41,631 nucleotides of DNA from an uncultured Clostridia bacterium (lineage in GTDB: Bacteria; Bacillota; Clostridia; Christensenellales; UBA1242), in NCBI GenBank assembly GCA_944372465.1, contig CALVZG010000053.1:1-41631 (forward strand). Direction: 5' to 3'. The notes beneath the pieces are model-generated. The model had not been told where the DNA came from, made no database searches, and was given only the letters and a program-made list of their open reading frames with translations. This document shows positions 7,174 to 29,449 of this stretch, in pieces. Position numbers and translations under genes: made by a program. Position 1 is the first letter of the stretch. Each line of letters begins with the position of its first letter.

Positions 7174-8025
7174 ATGAAAATAGCAAATGATTGGAAAGAT
7201 TATAAAGTTTTAGCAACGGGTAATGGAGAAAAATTAGAACAATGGGGAAGTTTTATACTTCTTCGTCCAGACCCACAAGTTATTTGGAAATCAAAAAAAG
7301 AATTATCAAAATTTGCAGGACTTGATGGGCATTACATTCGTTCATCATCAGGCGGAGGAAGTTGGCAGTTTTTTAATAAAGTTCCAGAAAGGTGGCAAAT
7401 CGAATGGAAAGGGATTAAATTTATTGTAAAACCTATGGGGTTTAAGCATACAGGTCTTTTCCCAGAACAGGCTGTAAATTGGAATGATATGACAAAAGCA
7501 ATAAAAGAAGCAAATAGACCTATAAAAGTTTTAAATTTATTTGCATATACAGGTGGGGCAAGTGTCGTTTGTGCTAAAGCAGGGGCTCAAGTTACTCATG
7601 TAGATGCAAGTAAAGGAATGGTGGAAAGAGCAAAAGAAAATGCGAATTTAAATAACATAACAAATATAAGATTTATTGTAGATGATTGTAAAAAGTTTAT
7701 AGAGCGAGAGATAAGGCGTGGCAATTTCTATGATGCTATAATAATGGACCCTCCGAGTTATGGACGGGGAACAAATGGCGAAATGTGGAAATTAGAAGAT
7801 AATCTTTATGATTTTGTAGAACTTACAAAAAAAGTTCTTTCAGATAATCCACTTTTTGTATTAATATCTTCATATACTACAGGTCTTAAAGCAAGTGTTT
7901 TAAAAAATCTTTTAACTTTAGTATTTGGGGAAGGTGGTATAGATGCAGACGAAATAGGTTTGCCAACTGAAGAAAAAATAGTTTTACCATGTGGTTCAAG
8001 GGGTATAAAAATATGGAAGAAATAA
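7174..8025 (+). CDS. Class I SAM-dependent methyltransferase (RlmI/RlmK C-terminal-domain-like rRNA methyltransferase)
   Basis: 283 aa. It has HTGLFPEQAVNW, LNLFAYTGGASV (SAM motif I), a THVDAS acidic loop and IIMDPPSYGRG (motif IV). Confidence 0.8.
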   Translation: MKIANDWKDYKVLATGNGEKLEQWGSFILLRPDPQVIWKSKKELSKFAGLDGHYIRSSSGGGSWQFFNKVPERWQIEWKGIKFIVKPMGFKHTGLFPEQAVNWNDMTKAIKEANRPIKVLNLFAYTGGASVVCAKAGAQVTHVDASKGMVERAKENANLNNITNIRFIVDDCKKFIEREIRRGNFYDAIIMDPPSYGRGTNGEMWKLEDNLYDFVELTKKVLSDNPLFVLISSYTTGLKASVLKNLLTLVFGEGGIDADEIGLPTEEKIVLPCGSRGIKIWKK

Positions 8026-10798: not shown

Positions 10799-10828
10799 TT
10801 GCTTTTTATAGAGTCAATATGTTAAAAT
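10799..10828 (+). promoter_or_regulatory. Candidate promoter of the orphan cassette
   Basis: TTGCTT (10799-10804), an 18-nt spacer, then TAAAAT (10823-10828) with an extended -10 TGt. Confidence 0.4.
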
Positions 10829-10858: not shown

Positions 10859-12316
10859 ATGAAGAAAAATAGTTTACATAATAAGAACGCAATTTCAAAT
10901 AAGAAAAAGAAGCATTATTATATAAAAAAAGATGAAAATGCTTTCTTAAGAAAAGAAGTTGATGCATTTTTAATGACGAGTGGAGTGTCAGCAATTTACA
11001 AACTTACAAGTGCAATTTCTAAATTAAAAATTCCTCTACACAATGCAAAAGAAGTAATAAAATATGCAATATGTGAAGAGATAAAAAGATATAATAATGA
11101 GGCAAGTGAAAGTGGTGTAACTATTAAGAATAGACATAGCACAATGCTTATGAATTTAGATACTACTAATTTTATTGCAAGAGAATGGCAATATGTACCA
11201 TTTATATTAAAAAACAGAGATTATCTTGAACTTCAAACTACTCCAAAATTTCCTATTTTTATTGAGAATTATGATTATAGTTTACCTTTGTATGAGTTTA
11301 AAAATAATATAAAATTCAATAATGAAATAAATTTTCAAAGAAAAAATGTAATAACATCAAATGATGTGCAATTTTATATTTCCAATGACGAAAAGGTACT
11401 TTTTTCAAAAGTAACAAATTTATTATTTAGCCCAATAAGTTATAAACTAATAAAAGAATTTAAAAAAACATTATCGCCGAATGATAATGTTGAGCAAATA
11501 AAATATATGCCTTCATTATATGAAAGGTCTTTTTCTATTTCAATGTATGTAATTTTAGAAGGTGATACAAAGAAAACTCATATGTATATGCGTTATGATA
11601 GTTCAAGCAAAACGCATAAAAATATATATATTGGCAATGACAAAAGAGAGAATATCTTTGGATATGAAGCAGAAAATCCTCACTTTCATTTCCAAAATGA
11701 AGATGACAACCTTCTCTGCATAAAAAAGTTTAGAGATGGATATAGACAAATCAAATGGAAAACGGGAAGGTGCAATGCAATAGACTTAAAACATTTAATA
11801 AATTATTTAACAGAATTAGATAGTTTTACAAGAGAAAAGGTTGAAAAATTATATTTTGATGATATGCATTACAATATGCCTTTCTTAAAAGCGAAATTTA
11901 ATAATCAACCATTTTGTACAAAAAGTATTAATACCATGCTTTTAAATTATAAAAATGAAAAAGGTTCAATAGATGAAGAATATATAAAAAAGATAAAAGA
12001 TAAATTTGAAATTTTAAATCAACGAATTTATAATAATAGCAAAAATAAAGTATTTAAAAATTTAATTACCTCACTAAAATTTTTACAGTTTATTTGTGAT
12101 GAGAGAGTAAACACGAAAAACTTAAATGAACTTGAAAATTTATCAAAACTTGAAATAATAGTAGCAAGTGATATAATGAATGCTATAAATTGTAGTCAAG
12201 AAAAAGTTATTGAAAAAGATTATCAACCAAAATATATAATTAACGGCGATTATTTATTAAGTAAACAAAAGAAAAATCAACCAAAAGAACATAATGAAGA
12301 TAATCAAAAACAATAA
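10859..12316 (+). CDS. Hypothetical protein, 485 aa, no family recognised
   Basis: A long uninterrupted ORF with composition like its neighbours. It contains ENPHFHFQNEDD (H-phi-H-phi-Q, nt 11681-11695). I saw no TM segment and no Walker motif. Confidence 0.75.
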   Translation: MKKNSLHNKNAISNKKKKHYYIKKDENAFLRKEVDAFLMTSGVSAIYKLTSAISKLKIPLHNAKEVIKYAICEEIKRYNNEASESGVTIKNRHSTMLMNLDTTNFIAREWQYVPFILKNRDYLELQTTPKFPIFIENYDYSLPLYEFKNNIKFNNEINFQRKNVITSNDVQFYISNDEKVLFSKVTNLLFSPISYKLIKEFKKTLSPNDNVEQIKYMPSLYERSFSISMYVILEGDTKKTHMYMRYDSSSKTHKNIYIGNDKRENIFGYEAENPHFHFQNEDDNLLCIKKFRDGYRQIKWKTGRCNAIDLKHLINYLTELDSFTREKVEKLYFDDMHYNMPFLKAKFNNQPFCTKSINTMLLNYKNEKGSIDEEYIKKIKDKFEILNQRIYNNSKNKVFKNLITSLKFLQFICDERVNTKNLNELENLSKLEIIVASDIMNAINCSQEKVIEKDYQPKYIINGDYLLSKQKKNQPKEHNEDNQKQ

Positions 12317-12329
12317 ATAGGAGAAAAAA

Positions 12330-12701
12330 ATGAGTAATATTGATGACTGTTTAAAAGTTTTAAAAAAATACATAAGTGCAGATAAAATAAAACAAATGGC
12401 ATATAATAAATATTTAATTGATATGGATTTGATTTTATTTAATAGTCAAGATGTATTGCCAATATATCTTGTAGAGATAGATAAAAAATTATATTTAGCA
12501 GATTATGGATATACGACAAAAAATTTAAACTTATCTTTACAAACTCAACAATTTATTAAAAAAATTCTTGAAAATCATGGTGGTATAACTTATGAAGAAG
12601 GGAATTTATTATTAGGAACGAACATAGAAAGAATATATTTAGATTTAAACTATTTTATTATGGCAATAATGTTATGCCAATCGTTAGATAATTATAAATA
12701 A
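12330..12701 (+). CDS. Hypothetical small protein, 123 aa (possibly DUF1828-like)
   Basis: RBS AGGAG sits 7 nt upstream, and the start is 13 nt after the previous stop. The pattern LYLADYGYTTKNL...IKKILENHGG is reminiscent of DUF1828-type small alpha/beta proteins. That resemblance is recollection only. Confidence 0.7.
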   Translation: MSNIDDCLKVLKKYISADKIKQMAYNKYLIDMDLILFNSQDVLPIYLVEIDKKLYLADYGYTTKNLNLSLQTQQFIKKILENHGGITYEEGNLLLGTNIERIYLDLNYFIMAIMLCQSLDNYK

Positions 12702-12751
12702 TAAAACAATAAAAATTACAATTTGTATAATTTAAAAGATTTTTATATAAT

Positions 12752-12782
12752 GCTTAATTGTTTTACTTTTAAGCTTTTTTTT
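12752..12782 (+). terminator. Intrinsic terminator closing the orphan cassette
   Basis: GCTTAA...TTAAGC hairpin followed by TTTTTTTT. Confidence 0.75.
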
Positions 12783-12946: not shown

Positions 12947-13897
12947 ATGGAAAATATTATAGTTGTAGATAACTTAACACAGGACTATGGTCATGGAAGA
13001 GGTGTTTTTGATGTGTCTTTTTCTGTAAAAAAAGGTGAAGTATTTGGTTTTTTAGGCCCAAACGGAGCAGGAAAATCAACAACAATAAGACATATTATGG
13101 GCTTTTCTCGCCCTCAAAAGGGAGAGATAAAAGTGTTTGATATGGAAACCTTTAAAAATTATTACAAAATTTTAGGTAGAATTGGTTATCTTCCGGGAGA
13201 AATAGCATTGCCAGAAGGACTGACAGGTTGGGAATTTATAAAAATGATGTGGAGTTTAAGAAAAGTTGAAGATAAAGAAAGACTAGATTATCTTTTAGAT
13301 AAATTTAAACTTAATCCATCAGAAGAAACAAAAAAAATGAGTTTAGGAGATAAAAGAAAACTTGCCATTATAACTGCTTTTATGCATGACCCTGAAGTTT
13401 TAATATTAGATGAACCAACAAGTGGTCTAGACCCTGTAATGCAACAAACATTTATAGATTTTATTAAAGATGAGAAGAAAAAAGGCAAGACTATATTGTT
13501 ATCTTCTCATATGTTTAACGAAGTAGAAGCAACTTGTGATAGAATAGCAATTATAAAAGACGGAAAAATTGTTTCAGAATTTGACACAAGTGATATAACG
13601 CACAATGAAAATAAAAGTTTTAAAATAATATTTAAAAATTCTGAAGAATTTGATAAGTTTGTATCATCTCTTCCAAAATTAAGGAAAAATTCAATAAATA
13701 TAAAGAGAATTTCTATAAGAGAAAGTGATAAAGAAAAAAGATGTGTCATAGTGGCAGTAAATGATAAAGATATAAATAATTTAGTTAATATTTTAAGTGA
13801 ATATAAGATTATTGCTTTCGAACAAGAAAAATTTACTCTTGAAGATTATTTTATGCAGTTTTATAAGGAAGATAAAAATTTTGGAGGTGTTTTATAA
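12947..13897 (+). CDS. ABC transporter ATP-binding protein (ABC-2/NatA-like), copy 1
   Basis: Walker A GPNGAGKST, signature LGDKRK (degenerate LSGGQ), Walker B ILILDEPTSGLD and H-loop SSHMF. ATG 12947 follows GGAGGA. Confidence 0.9.
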   Translation: MENIIVVDNLTQDYGHGRGVFDVSFSVKKGEVFGFLGPNGAGKSTTIRHIMGFSRPQKGEIKVFDMETFKNYYKILGRIGYLPGEIALPEGLTGWEFIKMMWSLRKVEDKERLDYLLDKFKLNPSEETKKMSLGDKRKLAIITAFMHDPEVLILDEPTSGLDPVMQQTFIDFIKDEKKKGKTILLSSHMFNEVEATCDRIAIIKDGKIVSEFDTSDITHNENKSFKIIFKNSEEFDKFVSSLPKLRKNSINIKRISIRESDKEKRCVIVAVNDKDINNLVNILSEYKIIAFEQEKFTLEDYFMQFYKEDKNFGGVL

Positions 13898-15072
13898 TGG
13901 AAAATGTAATTAAAGTGGAACACTTAACCAAGGACTATGGAGAAGGTAGAGGTATATTTGATATAAATTTTGAAGTAAAGAAAGGAGAAACATTTGGTTT
14001 TGTTGGAACTAATGGCAGTGGTAAAACTACAACAATAAGACATATTATGGGATTTTTAAAGGCACGAGAGGGAATAGTAAATGTTTTAGGAATGGATGCA
14101 TGGAAAGATTCGTGTAAAATAAAAAAGTTTGTTGAATATATACCTGGAGAAATAGCCTTTCCAGATTTAAAAGATGGTACTACATTTTTAAAAACTCAAG
14201 CAGAATTACTCAATCTAAAAGATATGAATTATGCTAATTATTTGATAGAGAAATTGCAATTAGACACTTCTGCAAACTTAAAAAGAATGAGTAAAGGAAT
14301 GAAACAAAAGACTGCAATAGTTGCAGCGTTTATGGCAGATAAAGATATTTTGGTCCTTGATGAACCTAGCACAGGATTAGACCCATTGATGAGAGAAACC
14401 TTTATAGAACTTGTCAAAGCAGAGAAAGAAAAGGGCAAAACAATATTGATGAGTAGTCAAATGTTTGACGAACTTGAAGATGTTTGTGATAGAGTTGCTT
14501 TGATTTTTAATGGAAGAATCATAGATATTGCAGATATGCACCAATTAAACAATTTGCCATATAAAACTTATAAAGTTGAATTTAAACAGAGAGAAGATTA
14601 TTTAAAATTTAAAAGATTAAAATATGAAATAGTTCGCGACCAAGAAAAATACAATCAAGTAACAATTAAAGTATACACTAAAGATTATAATAGGTTATTT
14701 AATACATTAAAGAACTATAATTTAAAATTCATTGCAGAAATCAAATATAATTTAGAGAAACATTTTAAAGAAATTTTGAAAAAAGAATATGACAGAATAG
14801 ATAATGAAAAGTTATCACAAGAATATAATAATTATCAAAATCAAGATAAAGAATATACAAAACAACAAAAGAAAAAAGAAAAGCAAGAACTAATAATAGA
14901 AAAGAATGAAAAATTTTTCAATAAAAAAAAGGAAGATGAAAAGAAGGAAGAAGATAAAAAGTTTGAGATAGATAAAAAAGAATTTTTAAAATCAGGCAAG
15001 AAAGACAAAAAATTACGATTGAAACAGCAAAAAAAAGAAGAAAAATTAAAAAAGGAGAAAAAAGATGTTTAG
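13897..15072 (+). CDS. ABC transporter ATP-binding protein, copy 2, with a Lys/Glu-rich C-terminal tail
   Basis: Walker A GTNGSGKTT and Walker B ILVLDEPSTGLD. The ATG overlaps the previous TAA. The last ~100 aa are K/E/Q low complexity. Confidence 0.9.
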   Translation: MENVIKVEHLTKDYGEGRGIFDINFEVKKGETFGFVGTNGSGKTTTIRHIMGFLKAREGIVNVLGMDAWKDSCKIKKFVEYIPGEIAFPDLKDGTTFLKTQAELLNLKDMNYANYLIEKLQLDTSANLKRMSKGMKQKTAIVAAFMADKDILVLDEPSTGLDPLMRETFIELVKAEKEKGKTILMSSQMFDELEDVCDRVALIFNGRIIDIADMHQLNNLPYKTYKVEFKQREDYLKFKRLKYEIVRDQEKYNQVTIKVYTKDYNRLFNTLKNYNLKFIAEIKYNLEKHFKEILKKEYDRIDNEKLSQEYNNYQNQDKEYTKQQKKKEKQELIIEKNEKFFNKKKEDEKKEEDKKFEIDKKEFLKSGKKDKKLRLKQQKKEEKLKKEKKDV

Positions 15073-25351: not shown

Positions 25352-25740
25352 GGGGGCGTTATTGGTTTCGACGGGGAGCATTGGTTAAAATGTAAAGCAT
25401 GTGGTGAGTCTACACCTAAAAAAGACAAACAAAAACAAACGCAAATAATAATGTAACTCGTATGGGCACAGCAAGCCTAGCTTGTGCAGCTTAACGAATT
25501 AAAATCGGTTGAAGATTTCGACCAACTCTCATAACAATTTCGCCAAGTTGTTGTAAGGGTTAAAAAAGAGGCGCTCTGTAAATAGAAAAAGTCTTGGTTC
25601 TATTTATAACTTAAAAGACTAGTTATTAATTAATTTTGTTTATGTAGAGATTAATAATGAAAAAATAACATAAACTAAACATGTAGAAAAGTTTTAAACA
25701 AGTTTTTCGGAAGCGGGTTCAATTCCCGCCGTCTCCACCA
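25352..25740 (+). ncRNA. ssrA: Transfer-messenger RNA
   Basis: The 5' end reads GGGGGCGUUAUUGGUUUCGACGGGG and the 3' end reads GGGUUCAAUUCCCGCCGUCUCCACCA. The acceptor stem has G3:U70. The tag reading frame ends ...GTASLACAA, with TAA at 25492-25494. Confidence 0.93.
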
Positions 25741-25791
25741 AAACAAAGGTCAAAAATTGATGCCAAAATAAGAAAAAAGGAAGTGAAAATT

Positions 25792-26967
25792 ATGAGTTCG
25801 GTAATTATTATTGTAGTTGTTGTTCTTGGAATTATTGTAGCAGGAGGCTTTCTTCTTTATTTTATGGGCGACCTTTTCATGAGTTTGTCATACAAAAATA
25901 AAGATGCAGAAGCAATAAAAAAGAAACAACAATCAGAAACAGATGAATTAAAGAAGAGAATTGATGCTTTAGAGAAAGCAGATGAATTAAAAAAAGACCC
26001 AGAGATTGCAACAATCCTTTATAATGATGCAAATAGTGGTGCAGTAGTTGAGGATTATAACCCTGAAGCAGAATCAAACGAAGAAAACAAAGAACAAGAC
26101 GAAAACGAAGAAGTTAGTGAAGAAACTGCAGAAGATAGCGAATCAGAGGATTCAGCAGAAGAAACAACTGAAGAAAATGAATCAGAAGAGCAAGAAGAGA
26201 ATGAAGAGGATAATGATACTACAGACTATATAAGACAACGCCGTATGGAACTTCTAGAAAGACTTGCAAGAATGCAAAATGCTCAAGACGAGGATGAAGA
26301 GGACGAAGAGGAAAGCGAGGAAGAAGATACAGTTGATCTTACTAACGAAAACGAAGAATCAGAAGAAAATGAAGATAACGAAGAAAATGTAGAAGAAAAT
26401 CAAGAAGCAACAGAAACAAACCAAGAAGAACAACAAGACGATAACACTGACGCAAATGAAGAAAATACAAATAATGACAAAAAAGAAGATGTAAACACAC
26501 TTGCATCTACAATGACTATTGACGAATTAAAAAATAAATTAGCAGAAGAACAAGATAAATTAAAAGCAAATGAAAAAGAACTTCGTACATGCAAGAAAGA
26601 ATTTATTCCATTAAGAAGAATAAAAAGAACTTTAGAAAGCGACAAACGAAAATTACAAAGAAAAGAAGCTTTAGTTGTAAAACAACAGACAGTACTTTAT
26701 GGAGTAAACAACTATGCAGATTTAGATGAAGAAAAGGCAAAAAAACTTGCAGAAGATCTTGACCTTTATGATGGATTAAAACTTTCAGTTCAACATTGTG
26801 AAGAAGTTATGGAAAAGAATAAGGAAAGATATCCTCTTCTTGAAAAAATTTTCAATCTTTTGTCTTCTCAAAATGTAGAAATAAAAGAAAATATAAAAAA
26901 TCTTCAAGAAGCAATTGATAGTTTAAATACTAATGGTGCAGATGACGAAACTGTTGATGCTGAATAA
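25792..26967 (+). CDS. Membrane-anchored, extremely acidic low-complexity / coiled-coil protein
   Basis: There is an N-terminal TM helix (VIIIVVVVLGIIVAGGFLLYF), a ~180-aa E/D/N-rich region and a C-terminal heptad-like K/E region. ATG 25792 follows AAGGAAG. Confidence 0.7.
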   Translation: MSSVIIIVVVVLGIIVAGGFLLYFMGDLFMSLSYKNKDAEAIKKKQQSETDELKKRIDALEKADELKKDPEIATILYNDANSGAVVEDYNPEAESNEENKEQDENEEVSEETAEDSESEDSAEETTEENESEEQEENEEDNDTTDYIRQRRMELLERLARMQNAQDEDEEDEEESEEEDTVDLTNENEESEENEDNEENVEENQEATETNQEEQQDDNTDANEENTNNDKKEDVNTLASTMTIDELKNKLAEEQDKLKANEKELRTCKKEFIPLRRIKRTLESDKRKLQRKEALVVKQQTVLYGVNNYADLDEEKAKKLAEDLDLYDGLKLSVQHCEEVMEKNKERYPLLEKIFNLLSSQNVEIKENIKNLQEAIDSLNTNGADDETVDAE

Positions 26968-27943: not shown

Positions 27944-29449
27944 ATGGAACTTAAAATATGCTTAAATGAAAAAGATTTAAAGGAAGCATTAAAAAAATCA
28001 TTAAGGAAAGGGTATAAAATAATTAGTTATGATATAAAAGAGAATGATTATAGTAAACTAATATTAAAAATTCAAGACTTATATACAAATGATTTTATAA
28101 GAATAAGTTTATTTGACAATGATTTGAAAGTAAATTGTGTAAATAAAACACTTGAATTTGAAGTGAAAAAAGCAATTGTCGACTTAATTGTACATAAATA
28201 TCCTGAATTAGAAAAAATAAAAGAGAATTTTGATAATTTAGCAGAGGATTCGGCAAAAACGATTGAAGAAAACATTAAAAAATCAATTTATAATATTAAT
28301 TTTAGTGATTGGAATGGATTGATAAAATCAGATTCTAAAATAAGTTTAGTCGCAAATAATGGACAGATAAAATTTGACAATCATGTAACTTTTAGGACTT
28401 TAGAAAATCCATATTATTATAAAGATAGAAAAATTAAAATAAAAGATATTTATTTTGCAGATTTAAATCCTGTTGTTGGAGATGAGTTTGGAGGAAAGCG
28501 CCCAGTAGTAATTTTAGGAAGAAACTCAAGCAATACAATATACTATTGCGTTCCATTGACTGATAAATATAGAGTTGATGGTGTTTATATAGGTAATATT
28601 AATAATATAGAAAATTATGCAATTCCATTATTAAAGGCAATTTCCCCACAAAGAATATTTAATTATGCAGGTTGTATTGATAATAAAACATATTCATCAA
28701 TTCAAAATAAATTAGCAGAAGAAATGTTATATGAAGATGGGGAACAGGAAGAAGTAGAATATGAAAGTAGTATATCATATGACAAATTAAGAAAAGTCAA
28801 AGATACACTTTCAAATAAATTAGACTTATTTCCTATAAAAAAGATAAGTAAAGAAGAAATGTATGAAATCTTAAATCAAGAAATTATAAATATAGAAAAC
28901 GAAGGGAAAATAAGATTTGCAAGGGAAACTGTAGATGGAGAGAAAGTATTGAAATATAAACTTGAATACAGTTTAAACGGGGACATAATTTTTTGTTTAA
29001 ATCCAAATAGTAATAATACAAAAAATAAATATTATCCAAGAAATTATTCATTTTCATTATTTTCTGTAAAAAGAAATGACCCTTTAAAGTCAAATAAATA
29101 TGTTTATGATAAGGATTTAAGTATTCGATATAGATTGTATATGATAAAAAATAATGAAAATTATTTTTTACATTTAATAAAATTTTTATGTAATTATTTT
29201 AAAAATGGCTATGATTATTATATTGATAAACATTTATTAAGTGATGCGAAAGGAATTCAAGAATATATAGAGGAAGCAAAAAACAATTTAAAACAACAAT
29301 TTGAAGAGGTTGGCATATTTTATGATGGAAGTTATGAAAGTTTAGTGCAAAGTGGATTTTTTGCATTTGACATATCAAAGTTAAGACCTATTGAAGCAAA
29401 AAATATCTATAATTGTCAACAAACTGACGAAGATAGAGAAAATGAATAA
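27944..29449 (+). CDS. Large protein with an internal MazF/PemK-like endoribonuclease domain (residues ~163-262) flanked by unknown N- and C-terminal regions
   Basis: IKIKDIYFADLNPVVGDEFGGKRPVVILG...CVPLTDK...LLKAISPQRI is collinear with the canonical MazF in this window ([29 protein letters not shown]...SAITSQ...[13 protein letters not shown]). Confidence 0.8.
   Translation: MELKICLNEKDLKEALKKSLRKGYKIISYDIKENDYSKLILKIQDLYTNDFIRISLFDNDLKVNCVNKTLEFEVKKAIVDLIVHKYPELEKIKENFDNLAEDSAKTIEENIKKSIYNINFSDWNGLIKSDSKISLVANNGQIKFDNHVTFRTLENPYYYKDRKIKIKDIYFADLNPVVGDEFGGKRPVVILGRNSSNTIYYCVPLTDKYRVDGVYIGNINNIENYAIPLLKAISPQRIFNYAGCIDNKTYSSIQNKLAEEMLYEDGEQEEVEYESSISYDKLRKVKDTLSNKLDLFPIKKISKEEMYEILNQEIINIENEGKIRFARETVDGEKVLKYKLEYSLNGDIIFCLNPNSNNTKNKYYPRNYSFSLFSVKRNDPLKSNKYVYDKDLSIRYRLYMIKNNENYFLHLIKFLCNYFKNGYDYYIDKHLLSDAKGIQEYIEEAKNNLKQQFEEVGIFYDGSYESLVQSGFFAFDISKLRPIEAKNIYNCQQTDEDRENE

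Follow-up and report, generated by a model that had tools for sequence, protein, structure and literature searches.

DUF1828 (PF08861) is a family to which Pfam assigns no function, known otherwise from unnamed proteins and from one candidate defence system, PDC-M24 of the PADLOC collection, and a second Pfam domain, DUF1829, usually occurs beside it. A literature search for DUF1828, DUF1829 and PDC-M24 found no functional information on DUF1828; DUF1829 has recently been found in a protein of a validated defence system (PMC13092281). Here we describe a DUF1828 gene which is paired with a large gene of an unnamed family in a 41,631-nt stretch of DNA from an uncultured Clostridia bacterium (GCA_944372465.1, contig CALVZG010000053.1), the whole of which is referred to below as the window. 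The large gene is denoted BIG and the small gene SMALL, and their pairing provides DUF1828 with its first concrete partner.

In their layout the two genes are reminiscent of type II toxin–antitoxin and polymorphic toxin–immunity systems, being adjacent and probably coupled, with BIG encoding a large basic protein (isoelectric point, pI, 9.2) and SMALL a small acidic one (pI 5.3), and the original prediction, made from the letters of the window, had pointed to a toxin–immunity or anti-phage module. Comparison with related loci leads to a different picture. It shows that the two genes make up a core operon which is restricted to one lineage of uncultured low-GC gut Clostridia and has been inherited vertically there. 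The reading that we favour, at a probability of about 0.45, takes BIG for a cytoplasmic enzyme, probably dependent on a metal, and SMALL for its accessory DUF1828 subunit. The two genes and the signal between them are as follows.

10859–12316, + strand: BIG, 485-aa coding sequence of an unnamed protein family (open reading frame list and homologues)
12319–12323, + strand: Shine–Dalgarno AGGAG of SMALL, 6 nt 5′ of its ATG (read from the sequence)
12330–12701, + strand: SMALL, 123-aa acidic DUF1828 protein (open reading frame list and PF08861)

The two closely spaced open reading frames (ORFs), the 13-nt gap between them (12317–12329) and the AGGAG it contains are just as originally described, and so is their organisation as a two-gene operon. 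Both are genuine genes and not chance ORFs: the G+C content of the window is low (27.5%), and both proteins have conserved counterparts in dozens of genomes.

One argument for vertical inheritance comes from the distribution of BIG. In a scan of one genome per species, covering 185,579 species, BIG was found in 35 loci from 34 metagenome-assembled genomes (MAGs), all of which belong to an uncultured gut ‘Clostridia/Firmicutes bacterium’ from human, mouse, rabbit or deer; the counts of synteny and pairing given below cover genomes that carry BIG. At every one of these 35 loci BIG lies between pepF and glmM, the gene order being a methyltransferase gene, an RluA-type pseudouridine synthase gene, pepF, zero to four inserted genes, BIG, in some loci SMALL, in some loci an ATP-binding cassette (ABC) operon and then, on the opposite strand, glmM. 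This order holds down to about 30% BIG identity, and is also seen for the homologue P0055 (E value 7e-23 against the profile). The identity of each BIG protein to the window copy tracks that of glmM (rho 0.81), of the ABC gene ABC1 (0.82) and of pepF (0.66), with BIG evolving about twice as fast as these neighbours (30–59% versus 52–77% identity). The G+C content at third codon positions (GC3) is 0.16 for BIG and 0.145 for SMALL, compared to 0.146–0.20 for the neighbouring genes, and searches of contigs in IMG/VR, phages in GenBank and plasmids in PLSDB turned up no relative of BIG, of SMALL or of P0062, a distant homologue. It is on this fixed synteny, the co-divergence with neighbouring genes, the native GC3 and the lack of phage, plasmid or viral relatives that the conclusion of vertical inheritance is based. 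The description of the pair as an ‘orphan’ cassette is therefore wrong in the evolutionary sense, as it is syntenic across many relatives. It had been suggested that the idea of an unusual module would fall if both genes turned out to be universally syntenic core genes with an assigned function, and here the first half applies, the genes being a syntenic core, and the second does not, no function being assigned to either.

More distant homologues of BIG are found in other neighbourhoods. The branch represented by P0062 has its own housekeeping synteny, comprising bipA, dnaB, yqeY, dtd, a gene X, metG, gyrB and gyrA, and a very divergent homologue, P0067, follows divIVA and lies near rnj and truA.

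Some of the loci show further variation at the junction. In L001 (5941–7810), L008 (5168–7726), L007 (6319–7757) and L052 (2237–4099) a divergently transcribed block is present between pepF and BIG, which is absent from the same spot in the window. The block encodes a metallo-β-lactamase-fold hydrolase (Pfam label Anti-Pycsar_Apyc1/Lactamase_B_2), together with a GT4 glycosyltransferase in all but L007, and some of the blocks also hold a 241–244-aa gene or a 770–793-aa unannotated gene. Separately, L031 and L045 are two contigs of one MAG (Lapin-002__bin27), each with a BIG–glmM junction but differing in sequence, a doubling explained either by duplication or by more than one strain having been binned together.

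Considering the pairing itself, SMALL was found directly 3′ of BIG in 28 loci when all fetched loci were searched with a profile, which corresponds to 19 of the 33 informative species loci. The spacing of the two genes in relatives ranges from −35 to +32 nt, and an ATGA overlap is common, so that SMALL is probably translationally coupled to BIG. The expectation that the two genes co-occur holds for these 19 loci; in the other 14 of 33 (about 40%, as scored at the locus) SMALL is absent beside BIG, and no remnant of it was found in the downstream gaps (−4 to 411 nt) of these 14 loci. In the BIG tree, a subclade that lacks SMALL (L015, L016 and L019) is nested within lineages that have it, and several deeper groups without SMALL surround the SMALL-containing pair L027/L028; this placement points to at least two independent losses of SMALL. 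The BIG proteins of the loci without SMALL keep every invariant residue, and comparison of BIG proteins with and without the partner did not convincingly reveal a SMALL-dependent feature.

The pairing is also seen once in an unrelated neighbourhood. A BLIP-like gene precedes the divergent homologue P0045, a helicase gene, recD2, lies downstream, and 18 nt after P0045 there is again a 124-aa DUF1828 gene (26.3 bits against the Pfam model and 98 bits against a SMALL profile). Since the pairing recurs there, it is older than the pepF synteny and reflects a functional link between the two proteins. Taken with the losses, we infer that SMALL is ancestral to the pairing yet dispensable, and that BIG works without it. 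For neither P0055 nor P0067 could the next gene be shown to encode a DUF1828 protein. The one after P0067 begins 1 nt beyond it (L053 9222–9350) and runs for 43 aa to the contig end, with an N-terminus that is loosely SMALL-like (1.9 bits, not significant).

The resemblance of SMALL to DUF1828 proteins, suggested originally, has been confirmed: the protein matches PF08861 with 32.7 bits, above the gathering cutoff of 22, over profile positions 4–89 of 91 (86 of the 91 positions), and the domain spans residues 36–114 (nt 12435–12671). Orthologues of SMALL were gathered by jackhmmer over the fetched BIG loci, as a word-indexed search proved too insensitive and returned SMALL alone; 16 of 20 match DUF1828 at an E value of 0.01 or below, the best at 1.1e-12. 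No solved structure for SMALL or DUF1828 is detectable by sequence. Where Pfam describes a family without function, SMALL is a stand-alone 123-aa protein with a defined partner in BIG. A comparison can also be drawn with PDC-M24. When the locus is scored against PADLOC, SMALL, like 15 of 20 orthologues, matches PDC-M24B, but it does so at the DUF1828 part only, covering positions 37–122 of the 255-position profile, that is, the N-terminal half, whereas membership of the system would call for a full-length match; BIG has no PADLOC match at an E value of 10 or below, leaving no counterpart of PDC-M24A, and the pair resides in a fixed housekeeping locus and not in a defence island.

BIG, for its part, was originally described as a large protein without a recognisable family, and profile-library, PDB and Foldseek searches all agree with this. 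It has no matches in Pfam, NCBIfam, PADLOC or PHROGs; Pfam scans of 24 members of its family revealed no common weak family, scans of the distant relatives were empty, and these scans detected no known nucleic-acid-binding domain. Comparison of PDB sequences with the BIG sequence and with two profiles also gave no matches (the profiles at an E value of up to 10). The family is small. Its homologues form 27 clusters at 90% identity in a database of 5.8 billion proteins, only 48 relatives, 34 of them below 1e-30, were recovered when 1.84 billion representative proteins were searched with a profile, and none of these relatives bears a name in the public sources searched.

Structures were predicted with AlphaFold2 (AF2), both for the full-length protein from the 24-sequence family alignment (mean predicted local distance difference test score, pLDDT, 83.7; predicted template-modelling score, pTM, 0.86) and for the core from an alignment which included the distant branch (pLDDT 85.9, pTM 0.79). 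Four regions can be distinguished.

10859–10927, + strand: lysine-rich disordered N-terminal tail, residues 1–23 (pLDDT below 50 for residues 1–19)
10928–11239, + strand: N-terminal helical domain, residues 24–127 (AF2 helices 24–39, 43–55, 60–78 and 119–127)
11240–11785, + strand: β-rich core, residues 128–309 (AF2 strands; a meander of about ten strands)
11786–12187, + strand: C-terminal helical domain, residues 310–443 (including an invariant (Y/F)-(N/G)-M-P-F-L at 338–343)

The N-terminal 127 residues have a pI of 9.7, and the helical domain within them is missing or different in the distant P0062 branch. The β-rich core is the sole part common to the whole superfamily, the distant relatives matching profile positions of about 220–390 only. 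Foldseek searches with these models gave nothing significant, whether the full model was compared with the PDB (best E value 0.34, template-modelling (TM) score at most 0.31) or the core with the PDB (best E value 0.043, TM score at most 0.27) or with BFVD (best E value 0.059). The noise-level matches of the core were to curved-sheet pocket folds, namely NTF2-like, START/PRELI and calycin folds, and no histidine-triad (HIT), GalT, HUH, cupin or carbonic anhydrase structures were among the matches listed. Membership of the cupins was considered separately, and dropped as Foldseek gave no match below an E value of 0.04. BIG is thus unplaceable in a known family or fold by the methods used, and is a candidate for a new fold or enzyme family.

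What does stand out in BIG is a set of polar residues in and just after the core, located as follows.

11591–11599, + strand: R245-Y246-D247, invariant including the distant branch, at the end of a long β-strand
11615–11623, + strand: H253-x-N255, invariant, on the strand following the RYD strand
11678–11695, + strand: P274-H275-F-H277-F278-Q279 strand, with P, H, H and F invariant across the superfamily and Q in the main family only
11759–11785, + strand: K-T-G-R-C-N-A-I-D block, residues 301–309, in which G303 and A307 only are invariant across the superfamily
11804–11806, + strand: Y316, invariant, in an L-x-x-Y-L helix directly after the core sheet

Within the main family the invariant positions comprise RYD at 245–247, H253-x-N255, P-H-F-H-F-Q at 274–279, D283, C287, T-G-R-C-N-A-I at 302–308, L313, Y316-L317, Y338 and P-F-L at 341–343. 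When the distant branch is added, whose members are 20–24% identical and share the core only, those remaining are R245, Y246, D247, H253, N255, P274, H275, H277, F278, G303, A307, L313, Y316, L317, P341, F342 and L343. The H-F-H-F-Q motif that had first drawn attention to BIG is encoded where it was reported, by nt 11681–11695 (H275 to Q279), with E-N-P before it and the acidic run N-E-D-D after it. Its conservation divides, however, since H275 and H277 are invariant in all homologues whereas the distant branch has N, S or T in place of Q279 and has also lost both cysteines and the acidic run. A zinc site of the Cys/His type, built from C287 and C305, was for this reason rejected, as the distant branch has neither cysteine.

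In the AF2 core model the invariant polar residues sit on three consecutive strands and the helix that follows, and the order of these strands suggests that they would come together as one site in space. A scaffold would less typically keep His, His, His, Asp, Arg and Tyr invariant at about 20% identity than would a catalytic or metal-binding protein. Metal sites are classically built from two histidines of an HxH pair and a further histidine on the strand beside it, as in α-carbonic anhydrase with its QFHFHW motif and H119, and BIG likewise has HxH on one strand and an invariant His on a neighbouring one; the likeness is an analogy and carries no membership, since Foldseek detected no similarity of fold.

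If BIG is the enzyme that we favour, H275 and H277, with H253 and/or D247 on the adjoining strands, could form a metal-binding or otherwise catalytic centre, R245 and Y316 may aid in substrate binding or catalysis, and SMALL would act as an accessory or regulatory subunit. For the substrate we weakly favour a nucleic acid or a nucleotide-containing molecule, because of the pI of 9.2, the lysine-rich tail and the presence of information-processing neighbours in four unrelated neighbourhoods, those of the distant branches including dtd/metG/dnaB/gyrBA, recD2 and rnj/truA/divIVA. Several points weigh on the other side. Catalysis, metal and substrate are all putative, the conserved polar residues could equally suit the binding of a ligand or a partner, and the folds that appeared at noise level in Foldseek (NTF2, START/PRELI and calycin) bind rather than catalyse. 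The nucleic-acid idea, moreover, draws on charge and a loose neighbourhood only, and SMALL might be encoded elsewhere in the genomes that lack it beside BIG. It is also conceivable, though we think it rather unlikely, that BIG founds a new enzyme superfamily, with a β-rich fold not seen before, a His/His/His-Asp-Arg-Tyr centre and a DUF1828 regulatory subunit, carrying out a lineage-specific housekeeping reaction in these reduced-genome gut Clostridia. BIG could then stand in, as a non-orthologous substitute, for a universal enzyme that is missing and whose substrate is RNA, DNA or a nucleotide-linked molecule. If BIG is an enzyme whose fold and active site are both new, it would add a family and possibly represent a lineage-specific solution to a core task in abundant uncultured gut bacteria, and were the superfamily idea true, DUF1828 would for the first time have a functional context beyond candidate defence systems.

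The main rival to the enzyme reading, which we consider unlikely, would make BIG a protein that binds or acts as a scaffold without catalysis, for instance a factor associated with the nucleoid, the ribosome or cell division, or a sensor of small molecules, with the conserved residues lining a ligand pocket and SMALL as its partner. This would suit the basic character of BIG, the large helical domains at its two ends and its disordered lysine-rich tail, the noise-level resemblance to pocket-forming binding folds, the neighbours seen in other lineages (divIVA, recD2, dnaB and gyrBA) and a rate of evolution about twice that of the neighbouring enzymes; it sits less well with the conservation of the polar residues described above and with the lack of any known nucleic-acid-binding domain in the Pfam scans. 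Two further alternatives stem from the H-F-H strand. That BIG might work like an HUH-type nuclease, with the two histidines as the metal site, H253 or D247 as a possible third ligand and Y316 as the nucleophile on DNA or RNA, is prompted by the position of H-F-H on a central strand with an invariant tyrosine 39 residues on, in the next helix, a spacing that resembles that of Rep-class HUH proteins. We regard this as improbable: both elements are indeed present, at the level of a short-motif coincidence, but no HUH, Rep, relaxase or TnpA structure or Pfam family was matched, the fold is larger than and unlike the five-stranded HUH domain, and a single-copy, vertically inherited gene without associated repeats or a mobile element is a poor fit to this class. 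Least probable of all is the reading first suggested by the motif, in which BIG is a divergent nucleotidyl transferase or hydrolase of the histidine-triad/GalT branch with HxHxQ as the catalytic motif. The likeness to HxHxH(Q) is real in the main family, where the H-φ-H-φ-Q stretch is on a β-strand and invariant across 24 proteins, yet none of these 24 matched HIT, GalP_UDP_transf or related Pfam families at an E value of up to 10, no PDB sequence was matched, neither the full-length nor the core model had a HIT or GalT structure among its listed Foldseek matches, the glutamine is not conserved across the superfamily, and the meander of about ten strands is unlike the compact α+β unit of HIT proteins.

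The idea of a toxin–immunity, toxin–antitoxin or anti-phage pair, with SMALL restraining BIG as an effector enzyme or with both sensing infection, we judge very unlikely. The tightly coupled large and small genes, the match of SMALL to the N-terminal half of the candidate-defence protein PDC-M24B, the DUF1829 domain of the validated system cited above and, in one distant relative, a weakly SUKH-like upstream gene all speak for it. SUKH domains are common immunity proteins, and the gene in question (L047 1905–2375, 156 aa) stands before the BIG-core homologue P0074 and matches SUKH-1/SMI1_KNR4 with an E value of 6e-4, below the Pfam cutoff; the superfamily offers no other hint of a conflict system. 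Set against this, BIG persists alone with its invariant residues intact in 14 of 33 species loci, after at least two losses of SMALL, which is difficult to square with a toxin in need of an antidote, and differs from the obligate co-occurrence of toxin–antitoxin and toxin–immunity genes. The chromosomal position is fixed, divergence matches that of the housekeeping neighbours, the composition is native, there are no phage or plasmid relatives and no mobile-element or defence genes were seen near the pair, so that inheritance is vertical in place of the patchy mobile distribution of such systems; neither protein has a known toxin or immunity domain, BIG has no PADLOC match and SMALL covers part of PDC-M24B only. 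As far as sequence analysis allows, a mobile toxin–immunity or defence cassette would therefore seem excluded. The wider lesson is that a tidy layout of a large enzyme and a small partner, with a match in a defence library, may nonetheless turn out to be a core operon passed on vertically, and synteny and co-divergence should therefore be checked before a defence or toxin–antitoxin call is made.

The expression signals proposed for the pair have fared less well than the genes themselves. Two features are concerned.

10799–10828, + strand: candidate promoter, TTGCTT, an 18-nt spacer and an extended −10 element TG-n-TAAAAT (read from the sequence)
12752–12782, + strand: candidate intrinsic terminator of the pair, a hairpin at 12752–12774 (6+2 bp) followed by U8 at 12775–12782

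The promoter sequence is present, but its −35 box has only three of six consensus matches, a consensus promoter scan missed it, and promoter-like sites in this AT-rich stretch occur at chance level (33 seen against 27.2 ± 5.4 expected). Alignment of the upstream intergenic regions of relatives found no conserved element upstream of BIG, and an Rfam search at a permissive threshold found no cis-regulatory RNA around the operon. The terminator, similarly, had been called clean; its hairpin and U8 are there, but the hairpin is weak (centroid −6 kcal/mol) and fails the G+C criterion of a terminator scan, which did not call it, and shuffled sequence folds just as well as the region does (z 0.22). 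An intrinsic terminator of the pair at this position is nevertheless plausible.

The surroundings of the pair in the window are, as had been claimed, housekeeping genes: ileS, an rlmI-like methyltransferase gene, the RluA-type pseudouridine synthase gene, pepF, glmM, an LbH acetyltransferase gene and glmS, and further genes for two ABC ATPases and an ABC-2 permease (forming the ABC-2 transporter operon), RNase R, tyrS and dnaB/dnaI-like loader genes, with signal recognition particle RNA and transfer-messenger RNA (tmRNA; 25352–25740) also encoded.

A few other features of the window were noted in passing. Directly 3′ of the tmRNA gene is a 394-aa ORF (25783–26967, + strand) with no Pfam match at an E value of 1e-5 or below. 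A 501-aa ORF (27944–29449, + strand) contains a PemK/MazF-like toxin domain confined to residues 168–259 (Pfam E value 1.1e-9), so that, for a fusion with a MazF domain, it is unusually long; it lies among housekeeping genes, and no obvious gene for a small antitoxin was noted. The RluA-type ORF, if read from the first start codon, overlaps the upstream methyltransferase gene by 37 nt (7989–8025) and is 269 aa long, compared to 230–286 aa in relatives, and its true start is probably further downstream. The second ABC ATPase (13897–15072, + strand) carries a C-terminal extension of about 100 aa, rich in lysine and glutamate and of low complexity, the protein being 301–404 aa long in relatives.

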